From: a virus
Taxonomy: Duplodnaviria; Caudoviricetes
Direction: 5' to 3' (one strand)
IMG/VR virus record: IMGVR_UViG_3300032007_001727
Length of the DNA stretch: 64,000 bases
Made by a program: the position numbers and the translations under genes
Part shown: piece after piece, positions 7,604-56,496 of the stretch
How the letters are laid out: every line of letters begins with the position of its first letter
Position numbering within the stretch: the stretch's first letter is position 1
Notes under the pieces: generated by a model
Seen by the model: the letters and a program-made list of their open reading frames with translations, nothing else
Database searches by the model: none
Told to the model about the DNA's origin: nothing

Positions 7604-7631
7604 AAAATGCAGTCAGAAATGGCTGCATTTT
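7604..7631. terminator. Bidirectional hairpin terminator, identical to 16578-16605
   Basis: AAAATGCAGTC-AGAAAT-GGCTGCATTTT between convergent genes. Confidence 0.7.
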
Positions 7632-14800: not shown

Positions 14801-16545
14801 GAGAGGCTTTGACGCAAGAGGGTGCTGACAGAAGAGAAGGTGATTCTAACTTGCAGAGTCAGTTGAACTCTAATGTTGAGAGAATCGACGGTGAATTGGA
14901 TTCCTTGGACATCAAGATTGCCAACGAGAAGGAGGCAAGAATGACAGAGGATGAGAAGATTTGGGCCAAGATTAGGCCGGTTGAATACTTCAACACGACA
15001 ACAATACACGTTGACAGAGTGAGAAACAGCGGAGAGACACCGGATGAAATCAGAAACAGTGTCATTGTTGCCAACGCATCCAATAATATCATCAAGGTTG
15101 ATAACGCTCGTGGAGGCATTTACTCGACAGTGTCGTTGGGCTATGACGGTCCGGCAAACATATTGAGTGTATATGACGGTATCGGAGAGGACAAGAGACT
15201 GCTGAATTCCGTTCAGTTAGGTCCGGGTTCCATCATCAAGGACATTTCGTATAACTATGCCGAGAAAACTCTTGTCGTGACCTATCAGAGAGCAGGCGAG
15301 ACCGGTGATACTACAATGAACTTCCCGGTGGCAGACTTGTTCAATGAATGGGATGTCGAAAACAAGAGCGAGGGTAGTGCACTTGAACTCCATAAGGTAA
15401 GTCAGACCACCGAGACCGGTACGGTTGACAAACTTTGGGGCCGAGTTCTCTTATCCGGCTCAATCCTTCCGGACGGAACCATTGACTATGGTGACAATAT
15501 CATCCGGATAGTCAACAACGGACTCTATGCAAGCGGTTCCGCCATTACAGAGGCCATGGAAGAGGCTGTTTGTACTAGGAATGAACTTAGGGTGATTGAG
15601 ACCGCAGTACTTGGCAATGACTTGAGCGAGGGTTATATCTGCGGAAGCGGATACACTTATCCAAAGTACGAAAGCGCTTGTTTCATCAATGCCGCAAATT
15701 CCATGTATGAGGCAGACCAAATACTCGATAGGTACTTGTGTTCCGCACATACTAGGATAGATGAGGTTGAGCAAGACTTGGATTGTTTGGACAAGGATTT
15801 GAAGATTACCCAACAGAATGTCCTTGGCATCACCATTCCGGAGTGTGGCTTGAACGGTGACGGCACACCATTCAGATACAAGGCACACGTTAATGCTTGT
15901 ATCATAAGCGCTGCAACTAGCATGGATGAGGCCGACCTTCTCCTTAACGATGCCCTCTGTGAGGTTTCCGGAGAATTCTCTTGCTTCCGTGAAGAGGCAA
16001 AGAAGGTCGAAGAGGTCTTGGGTGTAGTAGGTAACTGTGATACTCCTATACCATATCCAAGGACTGAGGGATGTCTTCTTTCGAGCGCAAGGACGTTTGC
16101 AGAAGCCGACAGAATCATGGAATCTGCAATCTGTGACATCAAGAGCATGTTGGTTGGAAGTGAATCTCCAACCATATCACTTAAGATTGTCGAAGAGGGT
16201 CTTAACAAGTACCTCGAAGCATCCGCAAGGCTTTCGCACGGTAACGAAGTCGGCAAGTGGCAGACAGACCAAGAACTCACAATCACCGACTATACCGGTG
16301 CTGAGATTGAACCTAATCAGCATGAGTTCACGGACACCAATGTCTTGAGGGTAGTTGACTTGACATCACAAGACATGAGACCGGATTCAAACTTCAACGG
16401 CTTATATCTGAGCAATGTGTGGGATTGCGGCCAATACACACTAAACGGCAGCGGAACACCATATGAGAAATATAAGACAGATGAAAGTGCTACGGCTCAG
16501 AATTTCTTTGACCGGAAATTCAGAAACGGTGTAAGATACCAATAG
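11857..16545 (+). CDS. Large tail-fibre-like structural protein (1562 aa)
   Basis: Repeated YYD...IIIxY...VIPxxDLIDEW modules and ExxRAxxAE coiled coils; the final G of its TAG stop is the first base of the inserted element. Confidence 0.6.
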   Translation: MDNRLQIRHHGIGSGYTSVDGVFETRQEAIEYIYSQIRFADSGLAFEDKSFGFSLYGEPTVLRYKNEEDETDPHVILAIGSYTNEGSQYNDNRFCIIDIDKTESEIAELWDEIERITSGLTIFTKDSNTLKLYTERTESGTTLSGDVQLASSVYFDDYRRNNIILNTENGLFTFVDMSYDDENEKMTFVVNGTVKEWNINNNYLVRGYYSKRDESLHLINKDESEIVVSLENLIDEWGVEGEASTTPIVLTREEVGYGDNSSHNHVEPWQDVLKADIRLADRKYNILKKTSDGRYLYVDGLAKNITFFKNGEEINVQDALSEVDKGISTDSTNIIYEKADGYYATAKLDYVSRENKLVFTSSNYTGGTSVNEIQLNSVEVFKKVYYDPVTESLIILYVDGNGELQEVVIPIGEMMTDWEWDIQNEGHNVKLHKQRVVAGNDKVSADVALYSADDNILVDRNHELYVKGDATNIKYGTESTVDDELDKLNDFAVTTSAKVNELSGKVDTVTTALENEVSRATSAETRIESRISDEISRSTSKDVEHDRAIETIQQTIGNGFSTDGHETVTYKFNELSANTNSLSAKTDMLASNLALVSANTEAEVVRATAEEQRIEKKFDDELGDGFNIRNTVRDEFDRERGDRIAEDIRLQTEIEEISASTSGKLIDINATDSSIGIDKTDATKPSIKVNLSTEIEDNKPNIIKVNSDGLYAGVDLDYYFESGTSKNVLVFKTTNQTKVFDLKTNSVVDKIYYDATREAIIIEYTVNGHRMPDVVIPVGDLIDEWRPSESTDGAIRLTKTRESGATQDVLYAESIISNHSDNILVNDHGALYVSGSQIEQNKTDINALKGRMTTAENNISNEVTTRQSEISRIENLVHAEEDRATTAENAIANDLNVEEIARANGDTALSQLIEQEATNRENADTQLQTNINSEATTRANEDSRIEAKLDQEISRSTAKDTEHDSKIAEEVQRARDAEHTIREALTQEGADRREGDSNLQSQLNSNVERIDGELDSLDIKIANEKEARMTEDEKIWAKIRPVEYFNTTTIHVDRVRNSGETPDEIRNSVIVANASNNIIKVDNARGGIYSTVSLGYDGPANILSVYDGIGEDKRLLNSVQLGPGSIIKDISYNYAEKTLVVTYQRAGETGDTTMNFPVADLFNEWDVENKSEGSALELHKVSQTTETGTVDKLWGRVLLSGSILPDGTIDYGDNIIRIVNNGLYASGSAITEAMEEAVCTRNELRVIETAVLGNDLSEGYICGSGYTYPKYESACFINAANSMYEADQILDRYLCSAHTRIDEVEQDLDCLDKDLKITQQNVLGITIPECGLNGDGTPFRYKAHVNACIISAATSMDEADLLLNDALCEVSGEFSCFREEAKKVEEVLGVVGNCDTPIPYPRTEGCLLSSARTFAEADRIMESAICDIKSMLVGSESPTISLKIVEEGLNKYLEASARLSHGNEVGKWQTDQELTITDYTGAEIEPNQHEFTDTNVLRVVDLTSQDMRPDSNFNGLYLSNVWDCGQYTLNGSGTPYEKYKTDESATAQNFFDRKFRNGVRYQ

Positions 16546-16658
16546 GCAATAATATAGCAGTTGGCACAACAAATATTAAAATGCAGTCAGAAATGGCTGC
16601 ATTTTCTGTTTATTATGATATTTATTGTAAAAATAATGAAATAAACACATATTATAAT

Positions 16659-17009
16659 ATGAATAAGAAATTAATTAGATTAACAGAAAGTGACCTTCAC
16701 AGAATCGTGAAAGAGTCGGTTAGTAGGCTATTAAAGGAGTCAATAGACAAGACTTATATCACATATGATGGGATAAATTTGTCACTTTCTATGAATGGTG
16801 AGGATATGTATATTGAATATAATGAAAATAACAAATGGATTCTTGCTGGATATCATGCTAACGAAAAATTGTGGGTTGTTCAAGAAAATCTTGACCCCGA
16901 AATGGTTGGTGATGGTGAAGATGACATAATATATATTGCTGAGACTAAAAGTATGCCGGAAGCATTAAGCAAATTATCACAATATATTAAATATACAACA
17001 AACCGATAA
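16659..17009 (+). CDS. Passenger protein with N-terminal MNKKLIRLTESDLHRIVKESV tag
   Basis: ATG at 16659 follows GATATTTAT (16617-16625); 116 aa. Confidence 0.7.
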   Translation: MNKKLIRLTESDLHRIVKESVSRLLKESIDKTYITYDGINLSLSMNGEDMYIEYNENNKWILAGYHANEKLWVVQENLDPEMVGDGEDDIIYIAETKSMPEALSKLSQYIKYTTNR

Positions 17010-17024
17010 ATGGATATTAAGCAG

Positions 17025-17126
17025 TCATTTCTTAACAAGTCCGATGGACTTGTCGAACGTATCCTCAAAGCGTTCCAATTGGAACGCTTTTCTTGTATTC
17101 CAACGGTACACAGCCTCGTCAATGTA
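17025..17126 (-). pseudogene. IS1595-family DDE transposase C-terminal relic
   Basis: Translates to YIDEAVYRWNTRKAFQLERFEDTFDKSIGLVKK*, matching the IS1595 C-terminal Y(L/I)DEx(x)(F/Y)R(F/Y/W)NxR motif; no start codon, in-frame stop just upstream. Confidence 0.7.
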
Positions 17127-17206
17127 CTAGTGAAAAAAAAGTTTCATTAAAAACAGTACTTTTTAATCCAATGTGATATTTATTAGTAAAGAAACTGATA
17201 AATACT

Positions 17207-18334
17207 ATGTTAAAAGCCTACAAATATAAGATAAAACCAAACCAACAGCAAGAGGAACTTTTGTCAAAGTTCTTCGGTTGTGTGCGCTATATCTATAATT
17301 GGGGCTTAAATGCAAAAACAAGTGCTTACAAGGAAAATGGTAAGGCAATCAACTATCTGCAACTTGCAAAGGAATTAACATCATTAAAGCAACAACAAGA
17401 CCATGAATGGCTCAATGAATGTACAACAGAGGCATTGCAACAGTCGCTCAGAAGTCTTGACAATGCTTTCACAGCATTTTTCCGAAAGAAAGCAAAGTAC
17501 CCAAGATTCAAGTCAAAGAAACGCACAAAGAACTCTGTGAAGTTCATAAAATCAGTACATTTTGACTTTGAGAATTGGAAGGTTAAACTGCCAAAGTTGG
17601 GATGGATTAAGTTGTGCAAGAACAAGACATTTAACCAAAGCATTTGCAAACAAGGCACTTGTACCGTATCAAGAGACCATTGCGGAACATATTGGTGCGT
17701 AATAACGGTTGATGATTTGCAGCCAAAACCAACGAAAGCCAAGTTGGTTAAGGATAATGCAATTGGAATCGACCTTGGCATCAAGGACTACGCAATACTA
17801 TCAGATGGAACAAAGTTCGCCAACCCAAAGCATCTTGAACAAGCGCAGAGGAATCTTGCTCACTTGCAGAGGGTATTTGCAAGAAAGGGCAAGGATTCCA
17901 AGAATCACGAAAGCATGAGAGTAAAGGTTGCAAAGTGCTACAGAAGCATCACCAATCGAAGGAATGACTTTTTGCATAAGTTATCAACTTATCTTGTAAG
18001 AAACTACGATGTAATTTGCCTTGAAGATTTGAATGTAAAGGGGATGGAACAGAACCATCACCTTGCAAGGGCAATCCAAGATGCGGCTTGGGGTGAGTTT
18101 GTTAGACAACTTGAGTACAAGTCTGAATGGTATGGTAAAAACATACTATTTATAGGTAGGTTTGAGCCAAGCAGCAAGTTATGTCACAAGTGCGGTTACA
18201 TCAACCAAGAGTTGAAACTATCAGATAGAGAGTGGATATGCCCACAATGTGGTGAACATCTTGACAGAGACGTTAACGCTGCGATGAACATCAAGGAGAT
18301 TGCTTTTGATAAGCAGAACCTTGTCGGAGTTTAA
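17207..18334 (+). CDS. tnpB: RNA-guided endonuclease TnpB
   Basis: HTH-OrfB N-terminus (AYKYKIKPN...FGCVRYIYNWGL), RuvC GIDLG / ICLEDL / DRDVNAA, Zn finger CHKCG...CPQCG. Confidence 0.92.
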   Translation: MLKAYKYKIKPNQQQEELLSKFFGCVRYIYNWGLNAKTSAYKENGKAINYLQLAKELTSLKQQQDHEWLNECTTEALQQSLRSLDNAFTAFFRKKAKYPRFKSKKRTKNSVKFIKSVHFDFENWKVKLPKLGWIKLCKNKTFNQSICKQGTCTVSRDHCGTYWCVITVDDLQPKPTKAKLVKDNAIGIDLGIKDYAILSDGTKFANPKHLEQAQRNLAHLQRVFARKGKDSKNHESMRVKVAKCYRSITNRRNDFLHKLSTYLVRNYDVICLEDLNVKGMEQNHHLARAIQDAAWGEFVRQLEYKSEWYGKNILFIGRFEPSSKLCHKCGYINQELKLSDREWICPQCGEHLDRDVNAAMNIKEIAFDKQNLVGV

Positions 18335-18344
18335 AGAGAAATAA

Positions 18345-18476
18345 AAGCCCATTGGCAAGTGGGTATAGAGGCTGTAGAGGGAAGAGGTTACGAACCCAAT
18401 GAAGCAGCAAGATAGATGGAGTGTTAGGTGTTTGTGCCAACTTCTATATCATTGCCTACCAATAACTCTTAAATAT
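18345..18476 (+). ncRNA. Putative omega-RNA of TnpB-1 (scaffold ~18345-18456, guide from 18457)
   Basis: Hairpin CCCATT-GGCA-AGTGGG whose GGCAA can pair with the terminal TTGCC; GCTGTAGAG...TGAAGCAGC resembles the usual TnpB scaffold core. Confidence 0.6.
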
Positions 18477-18477
18477 G

Positions 18478-18511
18478 AAAAAGGTGACCATTTAATTTGG
18501 TCACCTTTTTT
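18478..18511. terminator. Bidirectional terminator (AAAGGTGAC family)
   Basis: AAAAAGGTGACCA...TGGTCACCTTTTTT. Confidence 0.75.
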
Positions 18512-35776: not shown

Positions 35777-35877
35777 ATTGGCAATAACATAGGAGTGGCC
35801 ATTTTGCTTATGCTAATATTTATATTAGAAAAATACGCAAATGATATGAATAAGAAACTCAATTGTAGTAACTGCAA

Positions 35878-41687: not shown

Positions 41688-41762
41688 GGGAACAATATAG
41701 CAGTTGACTCTAAATATCAATAGTGTATAATTATACAAAAATGAGCAGCCAATTACGGTTGC

Positions 41763-55139: not shown

Positions 55140-56496
55140 CATAGTTATTTTTGTACGAGGAAACCCACCAATCTTCAGTTGGTGGGAGGAATCGCACATT
55201 TTTATACCTTTTTTTTCTTATTATTAGTAATTTTTTAACTTTTGATACTATTTATATATATAAATACCTTCACTAAGGGAAACTATGGTAATAAAGACCT
55301 ACAACATAAGGATTAATGGTGAACAAGGGTTCACGGCGTTTTGGCTCACGCTTCTGCGTGAGACAAGGGACGCATATAACCTCTGTTCCGACACCATCAT
55401 CACCGAAAAGGTGAAAATAGGTCTGACAGCCATTCACAACGCTTGTTATGACAAACTGAGAAGCAGTTTCCCTTCGCTCCCTTCACAAGCCATCATACGA
55501 GTGCAGAAAGAAGTGTTGCAAGCGTTTAAGTCAAAAAAGACAAACAAGCACAAAGGCTCTGCGCCGCACAAAACTTCACTGTCTCTCACTCTCGACAAGA
55601 GGCTTTACTCGAATTTCACCGCTGAAGGTATATCACTTACAAGCGGAAAGTCAAACTGCCGTGAACGGTTCACGTTCAAACCGTACCAAAAAATCGCAGA
55701 AATGTTTGCAACGTCAGTTGCAAAAGACCCGACGATTTTCTACAAGGACGAGTCCTTGTGGCTCTCCATACCGTTCGAGGTACAAGGGATAATGGTTCAG
55801 AATGACCGCTCCATAGGTGTAGACCTCGGCATGAAGAGGTTCTTCGTTACCTCTGAAGGCAAGTACTTCCAAGACAAGGAGTACCTTATGCAAAGGAGGA
55901 AACTGCGTTACCTCAAGAGGTGCTTGCAGAGCAAGAACACCAAGGGCGCAAAGTCCCACCTAAGTCGGATTTCGAGAAAGGAGCACAACATTTCAAAGAA
56001 CGAGTGTTACAAGGCGGTCAACGCCTTGTTGCAGTCCACGGACTGCGGTTACATCGTTATGGAAGACCTATCCAAGATAAAGGTTAAGACCTCCAAGAGC
56101 AAGGACGGTTTCAAGCGCAAGAGGCACAACAATGCATTATCGCAAGTACCGTTCTATACATTCAAGTACATACTGACATACAAGGCAACGCTTGCAGGCA
56201 AGCAAGTGGTATCAGTTTCTCCGGTCAACACAAGTCAGAATGACTGCCGCAGTGGTAGCAAGAACGGCACCCGCAAGGGGTGCAGATATTACACCAACGA
56301 TGGCTTTGTCTTCGACGCTGACTGGAATGCGTCAGTTAACATTGCACTTCGTGCAGAACACCCAACCTCGACACCTCTTCCGATTGACGGAAGACTTGTT
56401 GCCTTGGTTGGCAGGGCACCGTCAACTGCCCAAACGCTCAAAACACGCTAAAGGTTTTCTGCAAGCCCACGAATCTTTAGTTCGTGGGTAGTTGAC
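55140..56496 (+). mobile_element. IS200/IS605-family (IS1341-like, tnpB-only) element; left boundary approximate
   Basis: Matching subterminal hairpins CCCACCAA-TCTTCAG-TTGGTGGG (55164-55186) and CCCACGAA-TCTTTAG-TTCGTGGG (56466-56488), ending TAGTTGAC. Confidence 0.8.
55285..56451 (+). CDS. tnpB: RNA-guided endonuclease TnpB
   Basis: RuvC GVDLG / IVMEDL / DADWNAS; Zn finger degenerate. Confidence 0.85.
   Translation: MVIKTYNIRINGEQGFTAFWLTLLRETRDAYNLCSDTIITEKVKIGLTAIHNACYDKLRSSFPSLPSQAIIRVQKEVLQAFKSKKTNKHKGSAPHKTSLSLTLDKRLYSNFTAEGISLTSGKSNCRERFTFKPYQKIAEMFATSVAKDPTIFYKDESLWLSIPFEVQGIMVQNDRSIGVDLGMKRFFVTSEGKYFQDKEYLMQRRKLRYLKRCLQSKNTKGAKSHLSRISRKEHNISKNECYKAVNALLQSTDCGYIVMEDLSKIKVKTSKSKDGFKRKRHNNALSQVPFYTFKYILTYKATLAGKQVVSVSPVNTSQNDCRSGSKNGTRKGCRYYTNDGFVFDADWNASVNIALRAEHPTSTPLPIDGRLVALVGRAPSTAQTLKTR

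Follow-up and report, generated by a model that had tools for sequence, protein, structure and literature searches.

The DNA analysed here (the window, 64,000 nt) belongs to a cattle-rumen phage (Duplodnaviria; Caudoviricetes; IMG/VR record IMGVR_UViG_3300032007_001727) and carries, at positions 16545-18456, a 1912-bp element that combines terminal inverted repeats (TIRs), a target-site duplication (TSD), a gene for the nuclease TnpB and the relic of a transposase (Table 1). The two 25-nt TIRs are identical at 23 of 25 positions (the left one reads GGCAATAATATAGCAGTTGGCACAA) and are stretched by a repeat search to 27 nt at 93%, and an exact 8-bp duplication encloses the whole, as an earlier note based on the letters of the window had described. 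The minus-strand relic, which that note attributed to an IS1595 transposase, shares 25 of its 33 residues (76%, E 1e-15) with the stretch 286-318 of the 329-aa transposase of a related locus, L055 (related loci carry L numbers below and the window copy is W). In a pairwise comparison it is 54% identical to the equivalent stretch of the 339-aa transposase of L028; by itself the relic has no Pfam match. The passenger open reading frame (ORF) belongs to no Pfam or PHROG family, and Rfam gave no match anywhere in the window.

Table 1. Features of the element and its borders in the window (positions of the whole 64,000-nt stretch).
Feature	Position	Strand	Remark
TSD, left copy, 8 bp, TACCAATA	16537-16544		exact match to right copy
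TIR, left, 25 nt, starts GGCAATAATATAG	16545-16569	+	
Terminator-like hairpin	16578-16605	+	just inside left TIR
Passenger ORF, 116 aa from ATG 16659 (142 aa from 16581)	16659-17009	+	leader KLIRLTESDLHRIVKESV
Relic of IS1595 transposase C-terminus, 33 aa, begins YIDEAVYRWNTRK	17028-17126	-	stop 17025-17027
Conserved tnpB upstream region	17134-17206	+	homology with all other tnpB modules begins here, directly at the relic deletion joint
tnpB, 375 aa, ISDra2-like	17207-18334	+	
Predicted omegaRNA scaffold	18347-18456	+	
Stem-loop 1	18348-18352 paired with 18359-18363	+	
Pseudoknot 5' strand	18354-18358	+	loop GGCAA
Long stem	18371-18381 paired with 18395-18408	+	followed by variable linker, then right TIR
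TIR, right, 25 nt	18432-18456	-	last 5 nt on + strand TTGCC (18452-18456)
Pseudoknot 3' strand	18452-18456	+	TTGCC, last 5 nt of right TIR
TSD, right copy, TACCAATA	18457-18464		exact
Right TSD plus flank, predicted guide-encoding DNA	18457-18477	+	
Intrinsic terminator of the interrupted locus	18477-18511	+	outside element

The tnpB product matches Pfam OrfB_IS605, Cas12f1-like TNB and HTH_OrfB_IS605, and aligns over its full length with the TnpB of ISDra2 (E 2e-83). Judged from its sequence it is a TnpB with a RuvC-like D-E-D triad, a zinc finger and the WED/REC/HTH architecture. The catalytic residues D191/E278/D361 of ISDra2 align with D189/E273/D355 of the window protein, in keeping with the earlier description of the gene as catalytically intact, and these residues and the zinc-finger cysteines C326/C329/C345/C348 are invariant in nine diverged copies. 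The ratio of nonsynonymous to synonymous substitution (dN/dS) against other copies is 0.05-0.075, at dS 0.8-3.5, which points to strong purifying selection on TnpB across the copies. The INPHARED phage collection holds no close relative, with weak 66% tnpB matches in Lak phages only.

Protein-guided scans recovered TnpB relatives in 29 metagenome, 16 viral-contig and nine genome-contig loci, some of which are the same contigs under two names. In about 30 related loci the same tnpB module (56-91% amino acid identity) abuts an IS1595-type right TIR. The conserved block has sharp limits: it runs from about 70 nt before the tnpB start to exactly the outer end of the right repeat, and the sequences beyond are unrelated. 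Eight copies (W, L001, L002, L060, L067, L070, L073 and L092) have both repeats and a perfect 8-bp TSD, so that the TIR-bounded tnpB copies the earlier note had suggested searching for do exist, and the recurrence of the arrangement in many related loci speaks against a chance origin. The genome-contig loci L081 and L083 have a TIR-type end with the loop pairing described below intact. The element contains no tnpA of the kind that an IS200/IS605 or IS607 unit would have, and it has TIRs and a TSD, and in its relatives the conserved RNA runs into the TIR. Independent IS605 or IS607 ends nested inside the element, which the note had named as the observation that would speak against its proposal, occur in none of the roughly 30 homologous copies, where homology stops at the TIR end.

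The transposase is present in the relatives in different states of decay. L055 and L063 encode a full IS1595 transposase (329 and 328 aa; DDE_Tnp_IS1595 E 4e-44 and 2e-42; Zn_ribbon_IS1595) that is divergent from and adjoins tnpB, which is the combination the earlier note had proposed searching for. L066 and L072 keep the transposase N-terminus alone (149 and 129 aa), and W and L053 keep only the last ~33 aa. About 285 upstream codons are deleted in the window copy, and L053, with 81.8% nucleotide identity over 1443 nt, shows the same deletion form. The zinc ribbon and DDE_Tnp_IS1595 domains, lost from the window copy, are present in L055, L063, L028 (DDE_Tnp_IS1595 E 9e-46), L014 and L043. 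Since only 33 C-terminal residues of the transposase remain, the window element is a non-autonomous derivative and not an autonomous insertion sequence, and since L055 and L063 keep the full transposase, it is a deletion derivative that needs mobilization in trans. Comparison of the transposase states yields an ancestral layout of left TIR, cargo ORF, transposase (-), tnpB (+), omegaRNA and right TIR. These comparisons indicate that tnpB is a long-time resident gene of an IS1595 transposon lineage and not a nested guest, and that deletion derivatives arose several times independently, the window copy being one of them.

The shell itself is widespread. The IS1595-type ends with an 8-bp TSD seen in the window recur, as the same TIR family with 8-bp TSDs, in at least 15 other elements, and a scan of IMG/VR with the repeat revealed a large family, its members 349-3087 bp in length, that shares these ends and an 8-bp duplication. 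Most members are transposase-less cassettes with one small gene that shares the N-terminal leader of the window passenger ORF; the cargo-only cassettes are many and span 349-1227 bp. L028 and L014 combine a full transposase with leader-type cargo, and L043 is a plain transposase-only unit.

A further finding concerns the RNA encoded behind tnpB. RNAalifold applied to 21 non-identical copies gave two elements with compensatory changes, a stem-loop directly behind the tnpB stop and a long stem with interruptions. In the proposed structure 97% of cells are paired, compared with 39-51% when the 3' partners are slid by one to three columns; none of 500 shuffles reached the observed covariation values, and seven pairs have changes on both sides. 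The loop of the first hairpin (GGCAA) can pair with the last five bases of the right TIR (TTGCC), as the earlier note had pointed out, and this pseudoknot is conserved. A scripted table of 27 loci has 133 of 135 pseudoknot cells paired, both failures falling in L070, where the hairpin was mis-called and the alignment reads GGCAA/TTGCC. With the hairpins of L070, L092 and L095 read by eye instead of by the automatic finder, the pseudoknot is unbroken in 28 of the 29 loci tabulated (L092 5/5, L095 4/5). In L075/L103 (59% identity) the loop reads AGAGGT, there is no clear TIR, and a pseudoknot could not be assigned.

Loop and TIR terminus change together, which is the covariation the earlier note had asked about. 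The combination GGCAA/TTGCC occurs in 15 loci including W, and GGGAA/TTCCC in L001, L002, L060, L073, L092, L096, L102 and L081. Rarer combinations are GGTAA/TTACC (L069), GGTAA/TTGCC with a wobble pair (L071, a near-identical sister of L069), GGTAG/TTACC (L093), GGAAA/TTTCC (L074) and GGAAG/CTTCC (L094). Thus the middle pair occurs as C-G, G-C, U-A, A-U and U-G, and the fifth pair as A-U, G-C and G-U. The pairing types are interspersed over the TnpB tree (read without placement of L083), which implies several independent switches or module exchanges. Two cases favour a pairing at the RNA level with the right end over a duplicated transposase site: in L056 the left TIR starts with GGT, yet the loop matches the right TIR, whose outer end is GGC, and L069 and L071 differ solely by U-A versus U-G.

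The geometry resembles that of ISDra2. G18354 and C18456 lie 102 nt apart; in the ISDra2 omegaRNA positions -5 to -3 pair with -103 to -105, with non-canonical pairs at -6 and -2 (PMC10097598). Covariation and ISDra2-like geometry together place the end of the scaffold at the TIR, with the guide presumably read from TSD and flank. A structured RNA thus lies 3' of tnpB and its pseudoknot ends next to a variable predicted guide, the sequence past the end being unrelated between sites. As the right TIR contributes its last five bases to the pseudoknot, a single stretch of DNA is at once the transposon end for the transposase and the terminus of the scaffold. We hold this structural interpretation, a scaffold fused to an IS1595 TIR, with high confidence.

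The upstream neighbour is a 1562-aa tail-type gene (weak PHROG match to a minor tail protein), and the element sits between the stop codon of this gene and the gene's terminator. The left TSD supplies the final codons, and the stop codon TAG is composed of the TSD bases TA and the first G of the TIR, so that the insertion changed TAA to TAG. At L080, a related phage locus whose protein is 59% identical, the arrangement is uninterrupted and the terminator directly follows the stop.

Where the guide begins, and which target-adjacent motif (TAM) it is used with, can be approached from the insertion sites. The base 5' of the left TSD is A in all eight TSD-verified elements, and of 28 distinct insertion sites 26 have a T directly behind the right TIR. 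At the position that mirrors this one, where the TSD ends, A occurs in 5/8 only, and the bias is therefore not simply a palindromic preference of the transposase. As tnpB-less cassettes can be read in either orientation, they give no clean control for the T-first bias. Beyond the first TSD base the other seven vary freely among sites, so that at most the first base (T) could be scaffold. The residues that contact the TAM in ISDra2 show a matching pattern. Y52 and S56 read -1T in ISDra2; in the clade Y52 corresponds to the conserved and invariant Y50, and S56 is replaced by A54. Q80, which reads -2A, is conserved and invariant as Q78. The readers of the upstream bases are exchanged: K76 (-3G) for T74, F77 and T123 (-4T) for E75 and K115, and N124 (-5T) for S116. 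From the insertion-site statistics and the conserved TAM contacts we infer a TAM that ends in AT and has altered upstream bases, and both observations lend indirect support to RNA-guided, TAM-dependent cleavage. In the simplest reading T18457 would be the last scaffold base (with the pseudoknot at -6 to -2 as in ISDra2), the guide would start at 18458 and the TAM of the empty allele would be ...GA|T. The earlier note had taken the guide to be the TSD plus flank (TACCAATAACTC...). TSD and flank stand as its source; its start probably shifts to the second TSD base, on small numbers.

Taken together, we read the window copy as a non-autonomous element of an IS1595 lineage with a resident tnpB, an omegaRNA closed by the TIR and a possible homing function, and give this reading a probability of about 0.65. 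A related transposase supplied in trans would move the copy. Transcription through the TIR into the TSD and flank would then yield a site-specific guide of ~16-20 nt. With a TAM formed by the last flank base A and the first TSD base T, the element-free allele alone would present both the TAM and the full target. The occupied allele would be immune, since its right end has CC before the T and at its left end seven guide bases match before the repeat begins. In phage genomes that co-replicate or co-infect, TnpB would cut those alleles that lack the element, and the element would be copied in during recombinational repair, which amounts to homing or retention. Homing is in our view plausible, at roughly even odds. 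An extended version of this proposal couples nuclease and DDE transposase at the level of a single base: the TAM ..A|T would straddle the element boundary, TSD base 1 would be the last scaffold base and the other seven the guide seed, and only insertions at ..A|T would be homing-competent and survive. The element would then be an RNA-guided gene drive among co-replicating jumbo-phage genomes and a prokaryotic counterpart of the step that produced Fanzors. This version is tentative and somewhat doubtful.

Several observations weigh against the proposed reading. Firstly, TIR pairs without matching TSDs occur in L003 (= L052), L051, L054, L056 and L065, which means that rearrangement among copies is common. 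The two flanks of L003 are near reverse complements of each other, and such flanks and the TSD-less units suggest that copies within one phage genome have undergone inversion or exchanged sequence with each other. Three methods found no left TIR or TSD for L055 and L063 in the DNA examined, so that a complete autonomous element with transposase and tnpB is deduced and not demonstrated end to end. Secondly, the TAM prediction draws on eight left flanks, and a preference of the transposase itself for certain targets could account for part of the T at TSD base 1. The single-sequence fold of the RNA is not significant either (minimum free energy z -1.1). Thirdly, cut-and-paste excision already leaves a double-strand break, so that what a DDE element gains from its TnpB is harder to see than in the case of IS605 (PMC13565253). 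Lastly, the signs of expression are faint and no empty allele was found. The stretch occurs in runs from cattle gut metagenomes, and the comparison with these used assembled contigs. One 373-nt contig of a metatranscriptome run matches 18105-18477 perfectly and breaks off 21 nt beyond the TIR, at a point that DNA contigs from another sample cross; contig ends cannot show RNA ends and the RNA library may contain DNA, so that the position of this end near the predicted guide end is at best a weak hint in favour of the predicted transcript. The empty allele, for which the earlier note had predicted an exact junction, gave no hits in an exact-pattern scan of viral contigs, and in the DNA runs holding the phage no contig joins 16544 to 18457, that is, none has a joint that skips 16545-18456.

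The strongest competing explanation accepts the architecture and an active TnpB and assigns the nuclease a role other than homing: it could cut competing phages or host DNA that holds the flank, stimulate recombination or transposition at the donor site, or be selfish cargo maintained through linkage. Strong purifying selection on TnpB and its presence in phage genomes speak for this, restorative homing would add less where DDE excision already makes a break (PMC13565253), and no empty allele was observed. Against it, the guide region differs with each insertion site and is always the local flank, which is how homing or retention works in every OMEGA element studied, the predicted guide of the window copy matches nothing else in the window or in the 105 loci retrieved, and a TAM joined to a local target agrees with the A|T bias of the insertion sites. 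We consider a non-homing role unlikely.

Less probable still is that the window copy is an inert relic, immobile and with tnpB and omegaRNA unexpressed. The transposase is cut to 33 aa, the TIRs differ at 2 of 25 positions and the RNA run covers the element at low depth, with DNA carry-over possible. However, the TSD is perfect, the tnpB ORF is intact, and all pseudoknot and stem pairs and the catalytic residues are kept. The same deletion form in L053 implies that the derivative has persisted, and tnpB-less cassettes with these TIRs and fresh TSDs show that trans-mobilization is active in these phages.

That an IS200/IS605- or IS607-type tnpB unit sits inside an IS1595 shell and keeps its own ends and guide is highly improbable. 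The closest protein is the Y1-associated TnpB of ISDra2, so the gene once came from an IS605-type element, but there is no Y1 or serine transposase and no separate right end. Throughout the ~30 copies, at 56-91% identity, conservation of the RNA extends into the TIR and homology ends with it, the pseudoknot uses the TIR terminus and covaries with it, and the TSDs flank the whole unit. No relatives of 60-90% identity with IS605-type hairpin ends and lacking the TIR were found. Least credible is a scaffold that ends before the TIR, with the TIR as guide against other transposon ends. The 25-nt TIR is guide-sized and rightly placed if the scaffold ended near 18431, but the compensatory changes between loop and TIR terminus mark those bases as scaffold, the 102-nt spacing matches the ISDra2 pseudoknot, and such a guide would target the element's own ends.

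Some further features of the window and of the related loci deserve mention. The 28-nt hairpin AAAATGCAGTCAGAAATGGCTGCATTTT just inside the left TIR (16578-16605) is present in identical form at 7604-7631, a phage intergenic spacer between convergent genes, and in L003, too, it comes after the left TIR; a bidirectional terminator of phage type thus seems to travel with the element. A perfect palindrome with a 10-bp stem (AAAGCGTTCCAATTGGAACGCTTT, 17067-17090) lies within the transposase relic, downstream of the passenger ORF, and may now serve as the terminator of that ORF. Two solo TIR-like sequences with no partner nearby, at 35780-35806 (GGCAATAACATAGGAGTGGCC...) and 41688-41712 (GGGAACAATATAGCAGTTGAC...), probably remain from other IS1595-type cassettes that this phage carried. 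At 55285-56451 there is another tnpB, only distantly related (24% identity over the RuvC part) and with no evident TIR. Its 3' coding end contains GTCAAC, with GTTGAC ~70 nt on (region 56421-56496). The earlier note had spoken of these motifs as a pairing; both are present and their placement fits the pseudoknot of a canonical short omegaRNA, and they are best called a candidate pairing.

Among the related copies, L002 (the same element as L068 and L091) is a 2116-bp TIR-tnpB-TIR unit with TSD TAATATAA that encodes a GIY-YIG homing-endonuclease-like gene (L002:3180-3932; PHROG 7168, 4e-11) besides tnpB, so that two different homing-type nucleases share one DDE shell. On a Bacteroidales metagenome-assembled genome contig (L082:4101-4400) the RNA region and TIR-like end behind a 57%-identical tnpB are truncated, and the next ORF, immediately downstream, opens with a sequence resembling the RuvC-I motif of Cas9/IscB-type proteins (..LGLHLGTSAIGWAIV..). 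The cassette cargo genes have a common N-terminal leader, I/K-R/K-L-T-E-S-D-L-H-x-I-V/I-K-E-S-V, and unrelated C-terminal parts (window 16659-17009; L005:4487-4882; L009:7232-7666; L017:656-1372; L047:6559-7050; L014:2974-3528); these genes belong to no Pfam or PHROG family, and the leader may be a targeting or packaging tag. In L015:1783-3775 the same TIRs, with no matching TSD, enclose a gene for a 578-aa BspA-type leucine-rich-repeat protein (Pfam LRR_5, 1e-105).

The element shows how an RNA-guided nuclease can be refitted from a scarless single-strand transposon (IS605) to a cut-and-paste DDE transposon, by making the last scaffold bases the end that the transposase recognizes. This refit is the step that is thought to lie on the way to the eukaryotic Fanzors. 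The clade further offers compact 375-aa TnpBs near ISDra2, pseudoknots that vary naturally from copy to copy and a TAM predicted to be short and to end in AT. Should homing prove real, the elements would act as gene drives in rumen jumbo-phage populations, and they carry other cargo as well, namely the leader-tagged small proteins and the GIY-YIG nuclease.

Among the closest known systems is ISDra2 of the IS200/IS605 family (PDB 8EXA/8H1J; Nakagawa et al., 2023; PMC10097598), with full-length similarity (E 2e-83), an identical catalytic triad, a pseudoknot between bases ~100 nt upstream and the last scaffold bases, and kept residues for reading -1T and -2A. Unlike ISDra2, the element has no Y1 TnpA or subterminal hairpin ends and instead TIRs and a TSD, the TAM residues for -3 to -5 are replaced, and the scaffold lies after the stop codon, without the ORF overlap of ISDra2. 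From the IS1595 side, the GG-start TIRs, 8-bp TSDs, the zinc ribbon and DDE_Tnp_IS1595 domains (L028, L014, L043, L055, L063) and the cargo-only cassettes of 349-1227 bp are those of the IS1595 family and its mobile insertion cassettes, whereas the passenger in the present case is an RNA-guided nuclease, and its RNA and the transposon end are physically one piece.

Target-site bases can be drawn into the scaffold in IS607 and in eukaryotic TIR/TSD transposons (Yoon et al., 2023, NAR; PMC10711439). The Fanzor/Fanzor2* and IS607 reRNA systems described there resemble the present case in having a TnpB-type nuclease in a cut-and-paste transposon, a scaffold that ends on TIR bases recognized by the transposase and, if T18457 is scaffold here, target-site bases that enter it. 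The Fanzor systems differ in being eukaryotic or of giant viruses, with short TSDs of fixed sequence that become scaffold, whereas here an 8-bp variable TSD must give most of the guide seed and at most its first base to the scaffold, and the host is a phage of rumen bacteria.

The earlier note knew of no DDE-TnpB pairing in prokaryotes; this has been overtaken, as the main text of Altae-Tran et al. (2023, PNAS; PMC10691335) reports six DDE-associated TnpB branches with inverted terminal repeats, in which the end of tnpB lies at most 250 bp from the transposon end, and presumes that solo TnpBs are moved in trans. As in these branches (DDE-1 to DDE-6), a prokaryotic or viral tnpB lies here within inverted repeats with its 3' end less than 250 bp from the transposon end (122 bp from stop codon to the end of the right TIR), and transposase-less copies would be mobilized in trans, while L055 and L063 have the transposase in cis. 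A 2026 review names ISL2, IS630 and IS1031 as DDE partner families and calls the association rare in prokaryotes (PMC13565253); here the partner is IS1595, with an 8-bp variable TSD and a scaffold-TIR fusion backed by covariation. Full-text searches found no paper describing TnpB with IS1595, and the main text of Altae-Tran et al. (2023), to which the search of that paper was confined, does not mention IS1595. The principle of a DDE-linked TnpB is thus already known, and the present case adds an IS1595 partner with a long, variable TSD as guide seed, copies with the transposase in cis, covariation, and a structure-based TAM prediction that matches the insertion-site bias.

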